From the NCBI GenBank assembly GCA_046262115.1, contig JBHENJ010000037.1, positions 22,993 through 86,992 of the forward strand: a stretch of 64,000 bases of DNA, in the 5' to 3' direction. Made by a program: the position numbers and the translations under genes. Shown piece by piece: positions 23,862 through 35,591 of the stretch; the stretch's first letter is position 1, and each line of letters starts with the position of its first letter. The notes beneath the pieces are model-generated. The model made no database searches and was not told the DNA's origin. It saw nothing but the letters and a program-made list of their open reading frames with translations. This stretch comes from Candidatus Limnocylindria bacterium. GTDB lineage: Bacteria > Chloroflexota > Limnocylindria > QHBO01.

Positions 23862-23938
23862 GCCCCCATCGTCTAGAGGCCCAGGACGCCACCCTTTCAA
23901 GGTGGAGATCAGGGGTTCGAATCCCCTTGGGGGCACCA
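23862..23938 (+). tRNA. tRNA-Glu (anticodon UUC), CCA encoded
   Basis: Cloverleaf: acceptor GCCCCCA/TGGGGGC, anticodon stem CCACC/GGTGG, loop CTTTCAA, T-loop TTCGAAT, 3' ACCA. Confidence 0.9.
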
Positions 23939-24653: not shown

Positions 24654-25526
24654 GTGCGCGTCAGAAAGGCAGTCCTCCCGGCGGCGGGATTCGGGACGCG
24701 CTTCCTCCCGGCGACCAAGGCGCTCCCCAAGGAGATGCTGCCGCTCGTCGACCGGCCGATCATCCAGTACGCGGTGGAGGAGGCGGTTGCCTCCGGGATC
24801 GAGCAGCTCATCATCGTTGTCGCGCCGGGCCGGACGGCCATCGCCGATCACTTCGACGCGAATCCGGAGCTCGAGCGCTGGCTCGAGGAGCGCGGCGACA
24901 TCGAAATGCTGCGCTGGGTGCGCCGGATCACCGAGATCGGCCCCATCGCGTTCGTCCACCAGAAGGAGCAGCTCGGTCTCGGCCACGCGGTGCTGATGGC
25001 CAAGGAGCTGGTCGGCAACGAGCCGTTCGCCGTGCTCCTCTCCGACGACGTGATGATCAACCCGCAGCTCCCGATCACGCGGCAGCTGATCGAGACGTAC
25101 CAGGCCCACCGCGGATCGGTGGTCGCGGTGCAGACAGTGCCGCGCGAGGAGGCGACCCGCTACGGCATCATCGTCCCCGTGCGCGAGGAGGGGCGGCTGT
25201 ACGAGATCGGCCGCCTGGTCGAGAAACCGCCCGTCGACGAGGCACCATCGGACCTCGCGGTGTTGGGTCGGTACGTCCTGACGCCCAAGATCTTCGACAT
25301 GCTCGAGCACACCCAGCGCGGCGCCGGCGGCGAGATCCAGCTCACCGACGCGATCAACATGCTGATGGGCGAGCAGCCGGTCTTCGGCTACCGCTTCGAG
25401 GGCACGCGGCACGACGCGGGCACCCGCATCGGCTGGCTCAAGGCCAACGTGGCGATGGCACTCGACTCGACGGACGTGGCCGACGACTTCCGCAGCTACG
25501 TCCGAGGGCTGGACCTGCGCGACTGA
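24654..25526 (+). CDS. galU: UTP--glucose-1-phosphate uridylyltransferase
   Basis: N-terminal KAVLPAAGFGTRFLPATKALPKEMLP motif. Confidence 0.9.
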   Translation: MRVRKAVLPAAGFGTRFLPATKALPKEMLPLVDRPIIQYAVEEAVASGIEQLIIVVAPGRTAIADHFDANPELERWLEERGDIEMLRWVRRITEIGPIAFVHQKEQLGLGHAVLMAKELVGNEPFAVLLSDDVMINPQLPITRQLIETYQAHRGSVVAVQTVPREEATRYGIIVPVREEGRLYEIGRLVEKPPVDEAPSDLAVLGRYVLTPKIFDMLEHTQRGAGGEIQLTDAINMLMGEQPVFGYRFEGTRHDAGTRIGWLKANVAMALDSTDVADDFRSYVRGLDLRD

Positions 25527-27127
25527 TGGACATGATCGGCAGGGTGATCGGCGGTCGCTACACCCTGCAGGCGCCGCTCGGCGAGGGCGGCATGGCCACG
25601 ATCTACCGCGCCCACGACACGCAACTCGACCGCGACGTCGCGGTCAAGATCCTCCGTCCGCAGTACGGCACCGATTCCGGGTTCGCCGCCCGCTTCCGCC
25701 AGGAGGCGCGCAGCGCCGGGTCGCTGTCACACCCGAACATCGTCAGCGTCTACGACTACGGGACCGATGGCGATGCGCACTACATCGTCATGCAGCTGGT
25801 CGACGGACGCGACCTCTCCAGCGTGCTGGCGGAGCGGGGACGCCTGCCGCCCAACGAGGCAGCCGGAATCGCCGCGCAGGTCGCGCTCGCGCTCGAGGCC
25901 GCTCACCGCAATGGGATCGTCCACCGCGACGTGAAGCCGGGAAACATCCTGCTCACCGAGGAGGGCGAGGTTCGCGTCACCGACTTCGGGATCGCGCGCG
26001 CCGTCAGCGAGGCGTCGATGACGATCACCGGCACCACGCTCGGCTCGGTGCACTACTTCAGCCCCGAGCAGGCGCGCGGCGACGAGGTCACCGGCGCCAG
26101 CGACGTATACGCGCTCGGCATCGTGCTGTACGAGATGCTCACTGGCCGGCGGCCGTTCACCGGTGACTCGGCCGCCGGTGTGGCGCTCAAGCGCCTGTCG
26201 GAGGACCCGCCGCCGCCATCGGTCTTCGACCGGTCGCTGCCGCCCGGACTGGTCGCGATCGTCATGCGCGCGCTGGAGCGCGAGCCTGAGGATCGCTTCC
26301 GCGGCGCCAATCCGTTCGCCGAGGCGCTCCGACGGTGGCAGCGTGATCCCGGCGCGATGCCGGTGCCATTCCCGCCGCCACGCCCGCCGACCGGGGACCC
26401 GACGGTCTACATGCCGCGTCCCACGCCGCCGATCCGCCAGGTGAACGTCGCGCCGCCGCCGCCCCGCTACGTCGAGGAAGAGCGCCGCGGCCAGCCGTGG
26501 TGGATCTGGCTGCTCGTCCTTCTCGCGCTCGGCATGCTCGGCGTGGTGGGCTTCATCGGCGTCCAGATCTTCACAGGCTTCGGACCCGGTGGATCACCCA
26601 CGCCGGCCGCCGATGAGTTCGAACTCCCGAACTGGGGAGGCGACCCGATCACCGCCGTGCGGCTGGACGCCGACCGGCTCGGCGTCGACCTCGACGAGGA
26701 CACCGAGAACAGCGACGACGTCGCGGCCGACAGCGTCATCCGCACCGAGCCGGAGGCGGGGACCCTCGTCTCGCGCGGCGACATCGTCCGCGTGATCGTC
26801 AGCAGCGGAGAGGAGACGGTCGCGGTTCCTCCCCTCGCCGGCCAGACGCGGAGGGAGGCGCGCGACACGCTCCGGAATCGTCAGCTCGAACTCGGAAGCG
26901 TCACTTCGGAGGCATCGGGAGCGCCGGAGGGCACTGTGCTGCACAGCACTCCGGCCGAAGGCGTCGAGGTCCCGGTCGGCAGCTCGGTCAACATCGTGCT
27001 GTCCAGCGGCCCGACGCCGACGCCCAGCCCGACCCCCACGCCGACCCCGACGCCGACCCCCACGCCGACCCCCACGCCGACGCCCACTCCGGTCCCGCCG
27101 CCGATCACCCCGCTGCCCAGCTTCTAG
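25526..27127 (+). CDS. Ser/Thr protein kinase with TM segment, two PASTA-like domains and C-terminal (PT)n tail
   Basis: Hanks kinase motifs (VAVKIL, HRDVKPGNILL, DFGIA, APE), TM helix, PASTA-like repeats. Confidence 0.9.
   Translation: MDMIGRVIGGRYTLQAPLGEGGMATIYRAHDTQLDRDVAVKILRPQYGTDSGFAARFRQEARSAGSLSHPNIVSVYDYGTDGDAHYIVMQLVDGRDLSSVLAERGRLPPNEAAGIAAQVALALEAAHRNGIVHRDVKPGNILLTEEGEVRVTDFGIARAVSEASMTITGTTLGSVHYFSPEQARGDEVTGASDVYALGIVLYEMLTGRRPFTGDSAAGVALKRLSEDPPPPSVFDRSLPPGLVAIVMRALEREPEDRFRGANPFAEALRRWQRDPGAMPVPFPPPRPPTGDPTVYMPRPTPPIRQVNVAPPPPRYVEEERRGQPWWIWLLVLLALGMLGVVGFIGVQIFTGFGPGGSPTPAADEFELPNWGGDPITAVRLDADRLGVDLDEDTENSDDVAADSVIRTEPEAGTLVSRGDIVRVIVSSGEETVAVPPLAGQTRREARDTLRNRQLELGSVTSEASGAPEGTVLHSTPAEGVEVPVGSSVNIVLSSGPTPTPSPTPTPTPTPTPTPTPTPTPTPVPPPITPLPSF
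27010..27095 (+). repeat. (PT)n-encoding tandem hexanucleotide repeat inside kinase gene
   Basis: ccgacgcccacg-type units encoding PTPSPTPTPTPTPTPTPTPTPTP. Confidence 0.6.
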
Positions 27128-27211: not shown

Positions 27212-27535
27212 ATGTCTGCCCCGGTCACGGTCGAGGAATCGACCTTCGAGGAGCAGGTCCTCAAGGCTGAGAAGCCGGTGCTCGTCGACTTCTGGGCTCC
27301 CTGGTGCGGCCCGTGCCGCCTGGTCTCCCCGGTCATCGAGGCCGTCGGTCAGGCGCACAGCGAGAAGATCTCGGTCGCCAAGGTCAACACCGATGAGAAC
27401 CAGCAGCTGGCCTTCAAGTACAACATCTTCAGCATCCCCACCCTGATCGTCTTCCAGGGCGGCCGGGAGGTGGAACGCCTCGTCGGCTACATGCCGCAGG
27501 AGGCGATGGAGCGAAGGCTGGCGCAGTACCTCTAG
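27212..27535 (+). CDS. trxA: thioredoxin
   Basis: WCGPC active site; start at MSAPVTVEE gives 107 aa. Confidence 0.85.
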   Translation: MSAPVTVEESTFEEQVLKAEKPVLVDFWAPWCGPCRLVSPVIEAVGQAHSEKISVAKVNTDENQQLAFKYNIFSIPTLIVFQGGREVERLVGYMPQEAMERRLAQYL

Positions 27536-27560: not shown

Positions 27561-27584
27561 GATGGCCGGCGGCAACGCCGGCCA
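27561..27584 (+). terminator. GC-rich hairpin downstream of trxA (candidate intrinsic terminator)
   Basis: Perfect 10-bp inverted repeat atggccggcg-gcaa-cgccggccat; weak U-tract. Confidence 0.4.
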
Positions 27585-27685
27585 TCATGCTGTTCGGTAC
27601 AAGCTGGCCCCCGAGTGGACGCCGCCAACGGCTACACTCCGCACGCTTTCCCGCCCGCAGCCTCCCGCAGGAGCTCTCGCCCTGA

Positions 27686-28243
27686 ATGATCATCAAGCCC
27701 GACCGCCGCGAGCAGGAGCGGAGGCGCAGCGAGGCGGCGGGGACGCCGGCCACGGAGCGCCGACAGAGCGATCGCCGCACGATGTGCTGGGAGGTCGAGC
27801 AGTGCGACCTCACCATCCGGTACCGGTGCCCGGCCTTCATCCTCCGCAGGCCGTGCTGGGAGCTGTGGGCGGTCGAGGGTGTCGGTCCGGCGCGCGCCTG
27901 TTGTTACAACGACAAGGAGTGCGAGCCCGGTCGCTGCGTCATCGCCGAGAAGCATCTCGCCGAGCGGCAGCCGTTGCCGGTCCACGTCGGGCGACGCGGC
28001 GTCCCGCTCGGCTACGGCCGGCCGCGTCGCCACCACTGCCCGCACTTCTACGTGACCGCGGGCAGCAGAGGGCCGATCCCGATCCAGGCGCCACAGCTGA
28101 TGCGGACCGTCATGAAGCAGGAGGGCACGGTGGCGCGTTGCGAGCTGCGCGGCGGCGTGCACCTCGACGGCGGGTACGTCAACGACCTGTGCCTGACGTC
28201 GCAGTTCAACCAGTGCGTCTTCTACGAGGACGAGCGGGAGTGA
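27686..28243 (+). CDS. Cys-rich protein with duplicated CWE motif (hypothetical metal/redox protein)
   Basis: 12 Cys in ~150 aa incl. MCWEVEQC, PCWELW, ACCYNDKECEPGRC, HHCPH; basic N-terminal tail; alternative start at M33 (27782). Confidence 0.5.
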   Translation: MIIKPDRREQERRRSEAAGTPATERRQSDRRTMCWEVEQCDLTIRYRCPAFILRRPCWELWAVEGVGPARACCYNDKECEPGRCVIAEKHLAERQPLPVHVGRRGVPLGYGRPRRHHCPHFYVTAGSRGPIPIQAPQLMRTVMKQEGTVARCELRGGVHLDGGYVNDLCLTSQFNQCVFYEDERE

Positions 28244-28256
28244 CGCGCCGGGCGCG

Positions 28257-29579
28257 GTGAACTACGCCGCCGCGGTCGGCGAGCTCCAGCGGCGCGGCCG
28301 GTTCCGGATCAGCCTGGGTTTGGCGCGCATCGAGCGGCTGCTCGACGAGCTGGACCACCCGGAGCGTGCGCTCCGCGGCGCGCTCGTGGCGGGGACCAAC
28401 GGCAAAGGAAGCGTCGTCGCGCTGGTGACCGCGGCGCTGCACGCCGCCGGCGTGCGGACCGGCAGCATGCCGAGCCCGCACCTGGTCACGTACCGCGAGC
28501 GCATCGCCGTGGACGGCACGCCGATATCCGAGCCGCGCTTCGCGACCGCGGTCGAGCGGGTGATGCCGGCGGTCGATGCCGTGGCCACGACGCTTGGCGA
28601 GCCGACCGAGTTCGAGCTGCTCACCGCGGCCGCGGTGGCTGAGTTCACCGCGGCCCGCGTGGACGCCGCGATCGTGGAGGTCGGGATGGGCGGCCGGCTC
28701 GACGCCACGAACGCGCTCGACCTGGGCGTGGCCGCGATCACCAACGTGCAGCACGACCACGAGCGCCACCTGGGGAGGAGCCTGCGCGCGATCGCGGTCG
28801 AGAAGGCGGCGATCGTGAAGCGTGGCGACCTTGCCGTGACCGGCGCCCGCGGATCAGGATTCACCGTGGTCAGCGAGCGTTGTGCCGCCCTTGATGTCCC
28901 GCTCCGGCGCGCCGGCGGTTCCTCGGCCGACTATCGGACGACGGTACGCCATACCGGCTGGGACGGCGTCGTGGTCGATCTCGCGCGCCCGTCCGGCGAG
29001 CTCGGAGCGCTCCGCATAGGTCTGCTCGGTAGGCACCAGGCGGACAACGCCGCGGTGGCGGTGGCGATCCTGGACGCGCTGGGCGAGCGATTCGGCGGAC
29101 GGCTACGGACGGACGAGCGCGCCGTGCGTCGTGGCTTCGCCGTCGCGCGCTGGCCGGGCCGACTGGAGGTCGTGACTCCGTCGCGCGGCGTGCGCGTCGT
29201 GCTCGATGGCGCCCACAACCCGGCCGGGTGCGCGGTCCTGCGACGCGCGCTCGAGGAGCTCGGGGTGCGGCGCCCGGCCATCGTCTTCGGCGCGATCCGC
29301 GGCAAGCGGGTGACGGCCATGCTGCGGACGCTCGCCGCGCTGGAGCCGACTCCCGTGTTCACCTCGGTCCCGGAGGCGAACGCGATCCCGACCGAACGGC
29401 TCGCCGCGACGTGGCGGCGCCTCACCGGCCGGCGCGCGCGCGTCCGCGAGGCGCCGGTCGAGGCTATGGCGCTTGCGGCGGACCTGGCGCCGGCGGACAC
29501 GCCGGTGGTCGTCTGCGGCTCGCTCTACCTGGTCGGCGCCGTGCGGCGCGCGCTGGTTGGCGACGGCGCCGCCGCATGA
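28257..29579 (+). CDS. folC: folylpolyglutamate synthase / dihydrofolate synthase
   Basis: Mur-ligase P-loop GTNGKGS, FolC family length. Confidence 0.85.
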   Translation: MNYAAAVGELQRRGRFRISLGLARIERLLDELDHPERALRGALVAGTNGKGSVVALVTAALHAAGVRTGSMPSPHLVTYRERIAVDGTPISEPRFATAVERVMPAVDAVATTLGEPTEFELLTAAAVAEFTAARVDAAIVEVGMGGRLDATNALDLGVAAITNVQHDHERHLGRSLRAIAVEKAAIVKRGDLAVTGARGSGFTVVSERCAALDVPLRRAGGSSADYRTTVRHTGWDGVVVDLARPSGELGALRIGLLGRHQADNAAVAVAILDALGERFGGRLRTDERAVRRGFAVARWPGRLEVVTPSRGVRVVLDGAHNPAGCAVLRRALEELGVRRPAIVFGAIRGKRVTAMLRTLAALEPTPVFTSVPEANAIPTERLAATWRRLTGRRARVREAPVEAMALAADLAPADTPVVVCGSLYLVGAVRRALVGDGAAA

Positions 29580-30466
29580 GCACCGCCGTGGCGGAGACGC
29601 GGGCCGGCAGCCACACCCTTCGCTGGGGTGAGCGGACCTACGTCATGGGCATCATCAACGTCACGCGAGACTCGTTCTCGGGCGACGGCCTGCTCGCGGG
29701 AGGTCGCGGCCCCGATGAAGCGGTGGCCGCGGCCGTGGATCTCGCGCGGCGCTTCGTCGACGAGGGCGCCGACATCCTGGACGTCGGGGCCGAGTCGACG
29801 CGTCCACGGGCGGTCTACGGAGAGCACCCCGAGGTCGGCGCCGCCACCGAGGCCCGCGCTGCCGTGCCGGTCGTCGCAGCGCTTGCCCGTGAGCTCGGCG
29901 AGCACGTCCCGATCAGCATCGACACGTCGAAGGGCGAGGTTGCGCGCCAGGCACTCGCCGCCGGCGCCAGCATCGTCAACGACGTGTGGGCAGCACGCCG
30001 CGACCCACGAACCGCCGAGGCCGCCGCCGAGACGGGCGCCGCGCTGGTCCTGATGCACAACAAGGAGCGCGCCGAGTACCCGGGCGGCATGATGGCCGAG
30101 ATCACCGCCTGGCTCCGCGACGCGGTCGACGGCGCGCTCGCCGCCGGCGTGCAGCGGGGGCAGCTGATCGTGGATCCGGGGATCGGCTTCGGAAAGGACT
30201 CGGCGATGAACCTCGAGCTGCTGCACCGGCTGGGCGAGCTGCGGGCCCTGGGGCTGCCGATCCTGGTGGGGCCCAGCCGCAAGCGCTTCATCGGGGAGCT
30301 GCTCGATGACGCTCCTCCGGGCGATCGTCTCGAAGGGACCGCCGCGGCCGTATCGCTGGCGATCTCCGCGGGGGCGGACATGGTCCGCGTCCACGATGTC
30401 CGCAAGATGGCCCGGGTCGTCCGTGTCGCCGACGCGATCACGCGGCTGACGCCGAGCTTTGGATAG
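29576..30466 (+). CDS. folP: dihydropteroate synthase
   Basis: ATGA overlap with folC; pterin-binding motifs (MGIINVTRDSFSGDG, DVGAESTRP). Confidence 0.9.
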   Translation: MSTAVAETRAGSHTLRWGERTYVMGIINVTRDSFSGDGLLAGGRGPDEAVAAAVDLARRFVDEGADILDVGAESTRPRAVYGEHPEVGAATEARAAVPVVAALARELGEHVPISIDTSKGEVARQALAAGASIVNDVWAARRDPRTAEAAAETGAALVLMHNKERAEYPGGMMAEITAWLRDAVDGALAAGVQRGQLIVDPGIGFGKDSAMNLELLHRLGELRALGLPILVGPSRKRFIGELLDDAPPGDRLEGTAAAVSLAISAGADMVRVHDVRKMARVVRVADAITRLTPSFG

Positions 30467-30842
30467 CGGCGTGCCACAGGCCGATCGTCTGACCCTGACC
30501 GGCATGGTCTTCCGAGCGCGCCATGGCGTGCTGCCAGAGGAACACGTCGAGCCCCAGCGCTTCGTGGTCGACGTGGAGCTGTCGGTTGACGCGGCCGCCG
30601 TCGCGGCGCGCGACGAGGTCAGCGCCGCGGTCGACTACCGCGAGGTGTTCGAGGCCGTGCGTGGCCTCGTGGAGGATGCCAGCCATCGGCTGATCGAGAC
30701 GCTCGCAGAGTCGATCGCCGGCGAACTGCTCCGCCGCTTTCCCGTCGAAGAGGTCGAGGTCCGGGTGCGCAAGCCCGACGCTCCGCTACCGGGCCCCTTC
30801 GATCACGTCGAGATCGCGATCCGCCGTCCCGTCAGCCGCTGA
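30459..30842 (+). CDS. folB: dihydroneopterin aldolase
   Basis: FolB motif LTGMVFRARHGVLPEE...VDVEL; alternative GTG start at 30471. Confidence 0.8.
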   Translation: MDSGVPQADRLTLTGMVFRARHGVLPEEHVEPQRFVVDVELSVDAAAVAARDEVSAAVDYREVFEAVRGLVEDASHRLIETLAESIAGELLRRFPVEEVEVRVRKPDAPLPGPFDHVEIAIRRPVSR

Positions 30843-35516: not shown

Positions 35517-35591
35517 TGGAGCCGAAGGTGGGATTCGAACCCACGACCGACGGTTTACGAAACCGTTGCTCTACCCCTGAGCTACTTCGGC
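35517..35591 (-). tRNA. tRNA-Thr (anticodon CGU)
   Basis: Minus-strand cloverleaf GCCGAAG...TTCGTAA loop...GTGGGTTCGAATCCCAC...CTTCGGC-T-CCA. Confidence 0.85.

Follow-up and report, generated by a model that had tools for sequence, protein, structure and literature searches.

X, a cysteine-rich two-module protein encoded next to folC in Limnocylindria

Within a 64,000-nucleotide stretch of DNA from a Candidatus Limnocylindria bacterium (GenBank contig JBHENJ010000037.1, positions 22,993 to 86,992 of the forward strand; hereafter the window), we analyzed a gene, here termed X, that encodes a cysteine-rich protein and lies between a thioredoxin gene (trx) and the folate biosynthesis genes folC, folP and folB. 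X is a genuine gene under purifying selection. Its product consists of two separable modules: an eight-cysteine N-terminal module (N-module) with sub-threshold kinship to the two-CW domain, and a four-cysteine C-terminal module (C-module) of about 70 residues which, judged by its conservation, is the core of the family in place of the CW part. The link to folC is a robust, tightly coupled trait of one bacterial class and not of the family as a whole. These features go beyond an initial annotation of the sequence, which had placed the cysteine-rich open reading frame (ORF) between trxA and folC at exactly the position given here. Our leading, still tentative, interpretation is that X would reside in the cytoplasm, bind Zn or an Fe-S cluster and act as a thiol-redox-sensitive regulator or adaptor whose expression accompanies that of the late folate genes.

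Coding evidence and architecture of X

The 12 cysteines of X (residues 34, 40, 48, 57, 72, 73, 79, 84, 118, 152, 169 and 177) fall within a span of 144 residues, in line with the 12 cysteines in about 150 residues reported initially, and all motifs quoted at that time are present: MCWEVEQC (residues 33–40), PCWELW (56–61), CCYNDKECEPGRC (72–84) and HHCPH (116–120). Cysteine accounts for 6.5% of the protein, compared with 0.29% (8 cysteines in 2761 residues) for the products of the eight genes around X, located between positions 24654 and 33870 of the window, a 22-fold enrichment (binomial P ~5e-13). Five of these eight neighbours, including a 533-residue kinase and a 431-residue HtrA protease, are cysteine-free.

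The G+C content at third codon positions (GC3) of X is 0.925, comparable to that of neighbouring genes. Relatives of X carry GAGGAGG at the same distance from the start codon as the Shine-Dalgarno-like element of the window copy, followed by a conserved MIIK(T)ERR start. With the window copy as reference and 72–80 related loci as the comparison set, differences at the first, second and third codon positions numbered 315, 62 and 1275 for the N-module (80 loci) and 808, 640 and 1558 for the C-module, third positions dominating in both; codon differences in the N-module comprised 1119 synonymous and 299 non-synonymous changes. A database search returned 900 homologues at E ≤ 1e-3, the full-length ones sharing 65–89% identity. 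The initial annotation had reasoned that missing homologues together with poor coding statistics would indicate a chance ORF; what we found were these homologues, a high GC3 and substitutions concentrated at third positions. X has no transmembrane segment or signal-like stretch (maximum 19-residue Kyte-Doolittle mean of 0.55), and the protein is predicted to be soluble and cytoplasmic.

The first 32 residues form a tail containing 10 arginine or lysine residues and 6 aspartate or glutamate residues. It had been described as a highly basic tail of 30 residues; it is indeed arginine-rich, and the six acidic residues make that wording somewhat overstated. ERRxxDRR repeats stand immediately before the first CW dipeptide, also in relatives and in several distant homologues. 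In most relatives (loci L003–L083) the tail reads MIIKTERRxGxDRRQxxDPFAPDRRxxDRRTMCW, with a conserved DPFAP flanked by a (D/E)RR repeat on each side; the window copy has such repeats and no DPFAP motif.

The N-module follows the spacing C-W-E-x3-C, x7, C-P-A, x6, C-W-E-L-W, x10, C-C, x5, C, x4, C. Across 10 diverse homologues, seven of its cysteines, both CW tryptophans and W61 are invariant, and the eighth cysteine is displaced in three. In the C-module, C118, C152, C169, C177, R114, R115, R151, R155, H159 and D167 vary little or not at all among 102 sequences, and C118, C152, C169, C177, R151, R155, L160 and F179 are invariant in a set of 61 that includes homologues of ~30% identity. The C-module is identified as the family core because it is the sole part left in the short forms, a very large group of homologues of 100–170 residues that carry only this module behind a Pro/Arg/Gly-rich tail; the upstream space in short-form loci is too small for an overlooked N-module. 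The 12-cysteine, two-module layout recurs in homologues of ~30% identity from unrelated contigs (P0161, P0173, P0179, P0181, P0185, P0193, P0194, P0197 and P0199), which are among the weakest full-domain matches of a C-module profile search, so the two-module form is probably ancestral and the short form the result of loss. Comparison of the N-module with the C-module revealed no similarity that would indicate an internal duplication.

Alignments place X among the most conserved products of its neighbourhood. Among long-form (two-module) loci, N-module identity is 77–93% compared with 49–70% for FolC; relative to the short forms, C-module identity is 64–68% compared with 34–56% for FolC, FolP and FolB. 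AlphaFold2 modelled full-length X weakly, with a predicted local distance difference test (pLDDT) score of 52, and the C-module alone with a pLDDT of 72 and a predicted template modelling (pTM) score of 0.52.

Relation of X to known families

No named family had been assigned to X, and this holds after the profile search that the initial annotation had proposed: Pfam, NCBIfam, PHROGs, PADLOC and PDB sequences are all empty for the window protein. Scans of Pfam, NCBIfam, PHROGs and PADLOC with close, short-form and distant relatives likewise gave no family match apart from a faint two-CW signal, and the window protein together with 16 relatives gave no Pfam match even at E ≤ 10. PDB sequence searches with the X protein and with both module profiles returned no match, and the C-module matched no PDB fold. 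X shows no sequence or fold similarity to folate biosynthesis enzymes such as HPPK/FolK (PF01288).

The faint signal concerns NCBIfam NF045718, the two-CW family, which has a cut-off of 35 bits and is defined by a duplicated CW motif. Window X gave no match to this model at E ≤ 10, nor did its close and short-form relatives. Two distant homologues, P0181 and P0185, reached 7.4 and 7.6 bits (E ~5) in alignments covering almost the full profile, below the cut-off; a positive control annotated as "two-CW domain-containing protein [Bacillota bacterium]" (P0224) scored 118.6 bits. For a direct comparison, a two-CW probe matched 3882 database proteins, P0224 among them, and 30 of these were used to build a profile. 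The elements C34-W35-E36…C40, C48-P49-A50 and C57-W58 of window X are invariant or nearly so in these 30 true two-CW proteins. Alignment with hhalign of the N-module (10 diverse sequences) to the 30 proteins gave P = 0.0081 (score 18.0, probability 4.9%) with six of seven cysteines in register, the matching elements being CWExxxC, CPA, RxCW and the closing C-x-C cysteine pair. Column shuffles that preserved cysteine content scored 10.4 on average (standard deviation 2.4), 2 of 300 reaching 18, and cysteine-rich negative controls gave P = 0.098 and 0.41. The C-module showed no similarity to two-CW proteins. An alignment-based database search with the N-module yielded 4 matches among 36 candidates, the word index having failed on so short a profile.

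Taken together, these comparisons suggest that the N-module is probably a compacted, divergent and distant relative of the two-CW domain, below the curated threshold. Two-CW proteins, which are stand-alone and about 100 residues long, share with it two CW dipeptides, the first within CWE-x3-C, an intervening C-P-A, an arginine two residues before the second CW and a closing cysteine pair; like X, they are small, soluble and functionally uncharacterised. The N-module has much shorter loops, with ~51 residues from first to last cysteine compared with ~69 in two-CW proteins, and eight cysteines instead of seven, a CC pair replacing the fifth (GTLC) cysteine. It lacks the glycine-rich GREPGG and GGKNGGR segments, and X carries an additional, unrelated four-cysteine module that two-CW proteins do not have.

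A functional parallel may be drawn with the WhiB-like (Wbl) proteins of Actinobacteria, which are small, soluble and lineage-restricted, carry four invariant cysteines and a basic tail, occur in variable housekeeping contexts and act as [4Fe-4S]- or thiol-based redox-responsive regulators. The likeness is one of analogy only and concerns the type of mechanism proposed for X. The window protein and 16 relatives do not match PF02467, and X lacks the G(V/I)WGG turn; the C-module spacing is C-x33-C-x16-C-x7-C, compared with C-xn-C-x2-C-x5-C in Wbl. Unlike in Wbl proteins, the basic tail of X is N-terminal, and X also has an eight-cysteine module.

Genomic context and distribution

The fol genes downstream of X were identified as annotated initially and run in the same direction (Table 1); the spacer between X and folC, given then as 14 nucleotides, is in fact 13. 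Wherever enough sequence was covered, the long-form order is galU, a PASTA Ser/Thr kinase gene, trx, X, folC, folP and folB, followed by convergent htrA and a two-component system; in the window, too, a convergent HtrA-type protease gene comes after folB. The short-form set comprises 80 loci from soil metagenomes, 64 of them with enough downstream and 47 with enough upstream sequence. Synteny with the fol genes, suggested initially as a check, holds throughout the class: X is adjacent to folC in 80 of 80 long-form and 62 of 64 short-form loci with enough downstream sequence, the two genes being separated by a few nucleotides or overlapping in relatives. This coupling persists where the rest of the upstream neighbourhood differs. 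It does not extend to distant homologues. None of the five distant two-module homologues whose flanks could be used has a fol neighbour, and their surroundings are unrelated: one lies 20 nucleotides ahead of dnaA, a second follows yceG and sua5, a third follows a KS-KS-KS-AT cluster, a fourth adjoins a molybdopterin-oxidoreductase-like gene and the fifth is divergent from genes for a CCA-adding enzyme and recG. A direct role of X in folate synthesis is thus not supported.

Table 1 Features of X and its neighbourhood in the window
Feature	Position	Strand	Description
trx (thioredoxin, trxA-type)	27212..27535	+	TIGR01068 124.5 bits (cut-off 96.8), PF00085
G+C-rich hairpin	27561..27586	+	11-bp stem, GCAA loop; 26 nt after trx stop, no U tract
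Shine-Dalgarno-like AGGAG	27669..27673	+	12 nt before X ATG, read from sequence
X, whole ORF including stop	27686..28243	+	ATG start, TGA stop, 185 aa; two-module Cys-rich protein
N-terminal tail, residues 1–32	27686..27781	+	Arg-rich mixed-charge (D/E)RR repeats; predicted disordered, pLDDT ~40
N-module, residues 33–85	27782..27940	+	8 Cys, two-CW-like: C34-W-E-x3-C40, C48-P-A, C57-W-E-L-W, C72-C73, C79, C84
Linker, residues 86–113	27941..28024	+	length and sequence vary among homologues (alignments); pLDDT <50
C-module, residues 114–185	28025..28240	+	RRxxC118PHFY … R-C152-xLRGGVH159L … YVxD-x-C169 … x-C177-VFYED
folC (dihydrofolate synthase / folylpolyglutamate synthase)	28257..29579	+	GTG start, 13 nt after X stop; TIGR01499 314.8 bits (cut-off 162.65)
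folP (dihydropteroate synthase)	29576..30466	+	ATG overlaps folC stop (ATGA); TIGR01496 251 bits, PF00809
folB (dihydroneopterin aldolase)	30459..30842	+	8-nt overlap with folP end; PF02152 122 bits; last of co-oriented run

The thioredoxin gene and the hairpin that had been noted between it and X are both present. The likely trx start is the ATG at 27212, with GGAGG 13 nucleotides upstream; in-frame alternatives are ATG 27191 and GTG 27158. trx is the immediate upstream neighbour of X in 78 of 81 two-module Limnocylindria loci, and in the three exceptions either little upstream sequence is covered or the best match is far off. None of the 47 short-form loci has trx upstream, and none has the N-module. 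In Limnocylindria loci, then, trx stands immediately upstream only where the eight-cysteine module is present. The 150-nucleotide trx–X spacer folds as RNA with -60.4 kcal/mol (z = -2.84), and a consensus scan of it found no terminator and no promoter. Among 79 related loci, only 16 have a similar stem of 10 bp or more, and 29 have one of 8 bp or more; given this poor conservation, the hairpin can serve at most occasionally as a terminator or stabiliser, and the window copy may act as a weak terminator or else stabilise the mRNA. Many relatives, with spacers of 40–65 nucleotides, probably co-transcribe trx and X. A tetrahydrofolate (THF) or ZTP riboswitch in the 150-nucleotide leader was considered and rejected, since no Rfam family or riboswitch matched the spacer at threshold and the hairpin is not conserved.

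X belongs to a narrow family: a C-module profile searched against 1.84 billion cluster representatives (50% identity) matched only 83 clusters, and the clusters of distant two-module homologues are metagenome-only. Full-length relatives are labelled only as "hypothetical protein" and come from Chloroflexota or Candidatus Limnocylindria metagenome-assembled genomes (MAGs). When one genome per GTDB species was scanned, at least 572 species genomes encoded an X relative. Of the best 80 of these, almost all bear the title of a Limnocylindria, Chloroflexota, Chloroflexi or Chloroflexia MAG; the remainder are two unclassified "uncultured bacterium" MAGs and seven entries titled Steroidobacteraceae, Binatia or Angelobacter, and all nine have the same syntenic block. 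The seven (L004, L042, L046, L051 and L074, Steroidobacteraceae; L056, Candidatus Binatia; L009, Candidatus Angelobacter) carry galU-pknB-trx-X-folCPB-htrA-HK complete, with X 72–87% identical, and their taxonomic assignment is probably an error of labelling or of contig binning. By its distribution in sequence databases, the family is essentially specific to the class Limnocylindria, of soil and freshwater, in the phylum Chloroflexota. P0001 (Chloroflexota bacterium, M3295_07230) and P0035 (Candidatus Limnocylindria bacterium, VJA85_07285) are true orthologues, with full-length identity in the 65–89% range, the same gene order as the window from galU to folB and no substantive difference.

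Many database entries begin as X and continue in the +1 frame (P0045, P0050–P0052, P0158, P0168–P0171, P0187 and P0192), with continuations such as …STSGDAA.RSATA.R.ATTARTST… or …ALQPVRLLRGR…, the same frame as the window ORFs 27562..28260 and 27879..28055. These frameshifts stem from error-prone assemblies of high-G+C DNA and yield false X–FolC chimeras and truncated entries. Candidate Rosetta-stone fusions of X to FolC were rejected on this ground, the long matches (P0158, P0168–P0171, P0187 and P0192) being frameshifted gene calls.

Further observations concern the neighbouring genes. No folK follows folB in the co-oriented run of the window or of loci L001–L083 and L094–L173, and tblastn with an E. 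coli FolK probe found none in the window or in the loci extended by ±8 kb, a search of low sensitivity over a small share of each genome. A literature search found nothing on Limnocylindria folate genes. In L001, folP and folB are apparently fused into one 466-residue product. Window FolP scores 242 bits on the NCBIfam model for Sul4, a sulfonamide-resistant dihydropteroate synthase (DHPS), below its cut-off of 600, compared with 251 bits on the generic DHPS model. sul4 has been postulated to be mobilised from a Chloroflexi folate-synthesis cluster (preprint 10.1101/472472), and Limnocylindria-type folP genes could be relatives of its source. The PASTA Ser/Thr kinase gene (25526..27127) contains at its 3' end a tandem repeat of period 12/24 (27010..27104), which gives the kinase a low-complexity C-terminal tail of the type (Thr-Pro)n / PTPSPTPTPTP. 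The region is flanked by two ordinary tRNA genes, tRNA-Glu(TTC) at 23862..23938 (+) and tRNA-Thr(CGT) at 35517..35591 (-).

Possible roles of X

If X is a metal-binding, redox-sensitive regulator or adaptor, the invariant cysteines of both modules would hold a metal, as Zn2+ or an Fe-S cluster. The eight-cysteine N-module would serve as the redox input, working through thiols or metal, and thioredoxin from the adjacent upstream gene would keep it reduced; the C-module would act as the output by binding a conserved cellular partner. In Limnocylindria, X stands first in the co-oriented run X-folC-folP-folB, read here as an operon, and its product would be co-expressed with the late folate enzymes, its translation coupled to theirs. 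The gene itself, its architecture, the invariant cysteines, the synteny and the coupling are observed; that X binds metal, senses redox state, works as a regulator or adaptor or affects the folate enzymes is our inference. A metal-binding or redox role is consistent with several features: conservation of the cysteines down to ~30% identity, the cysteine-poor local proteome, the association of trx with the eight-cysteine module and the predicted cytoplasmic location. The missing transmembrane or signal stretch makes a structural-disulfide role outside the cytoplasm unlikely and favours metal or redox chemistry. A more specific proposal, to which we give little credence at present, is that the C-module is an undescribed metal-cluster domain that, with the two-CW-like input and trx, would make folate synthesis in Limnocylindria responsive to thiol or metal status, possibly through binding to FolC or FolP or through control of the X-folCPB operon.

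Several observations weigh against a redox-responsive metalloprotein. The cysteine spacings of X, read from the sequence and consistent with the empty Pfam result, fit no canonical Zn-ribbon, ferredoxin, Wbl or ZAS motif. The two-CW domain has no known function, and a literature search gave no paper on it. Besides being weak, the full-length and C-module-only structure models assign different secondary structure to the second half of the C-module; we therefore make no claim about its fold. As to the thioredoxin, its co-occurrence with the N-module reflects one evolutionary split and not independent events, the distant two-module homologues have no thioredoxin neighbour, and the protein is a canonical housekeeping-type TrxA, so that its adjacency may be incidental.

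A possible but less probable explanation is that X is a purely structural Zn-binding housekeeping factor, for example one associated with nucleic acids, ribosomes or RNA polymerase (RNAP) and contacting RNA or DNA through its basic tail, with no redox sensing and with its position before folC being inherited gene order. A C-module much more conserved than the neighbouring enzymes would suit such a factor, as would the disordered basic or Pro-Arg-rich tails of both long and short forms and the location of distant homologues beside housekeeping genes (dnaA, ribosomal proteins, yceG/sua5, CCA-adding enzyme, recG). Moreover, the whole block galU-pknB-(trx)-X-folCPB-htrA-HK is syntenic class-wide, so conserved order alone need not imply function. 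Yet X resembles no Zn-ribbon, ribosomal or RNAP-binding family by sequence or fold, its tight coupling to folC survives changes in the remaining upstream neighbourhood, and the small number of clusters would be unusual for a factor of the core machinery.

The same coupling could instead mark X as a dedicated folate component of Limnocylindria, one that assists FolC or FolP as accessory subunit, chaperone or regulator, or that stands in, as a non-orthologous protein, for a step which the operon lacks, such as that of FolK. X–folC adjacency is near-universal in the class, with stop and start codons overlapping or nearly so, and the gene calls that run from X into folC through a frameshift attest to the tightness of the junction. 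folK, usually found after folB, is absent from the operon and undetected by the FolK probe, but it could sit elsewhere in the genome. We consider a folate role of this kind unlikely in view of the distant homologues without fol neighbours (five of five) and a ~70-residue, four-cysteine domain unlike HPPK or any folate enzyme; nor are there genuine X–Fol fusions, every long match being a frameshift artefact. Least probable by far is that X is a chance ORF in G+C-rich DNA, or else a secreted disulfide-rich peptide or a precursor of a ribosomally synthesized and post-translationally modified peptide (RiPP). Overlapping ORFs of 102–232 residues do occur on both strands, as expected at 70.6% G+C, and are ordinary artefacts of such DNA; database sequences in an alternative frame are frameshifted calls. 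The hundreds of homologues, their third-position-biased divergence and the conserved start with its Shine-Dalgarno site led us to reject a chance ORF. Secretion is opposed by the lack of a signal peptide or hydrophobic segment, and a RiPP precursor by the lack of radical SAM, protease or transporter maturation genes in any neighbourhood.

The X family is undescribed, joining a divergent version of a named, unstudied domain to a module with no known relative. Limnocylindria are abundant, uncultured Chloroflexota of soil and freshwater, and X, nearly a signature of the class, is described in no database. The C-module merits a family model of its own, which would allow consistent annotation of hundreds of "hypothetical proteins" and of the frameshifted X–folC chimeras. 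Should X carry a metal cluster and respond to redox state, it would represent a new family of small regulators in a phylum without the Wbl proteins of Actinobacteria, and would for the first time open to experiment the two-CW domain, which is widespread yet unstudied, a single probe having matched thousands of database proteins. It could also show how Limnocylindria tie folate synthesis to redox or metal supply and, if thiol or metal status is indeed coupled to that pathway, X would be a new class-specific redox regulator of one-carbon metabolism.

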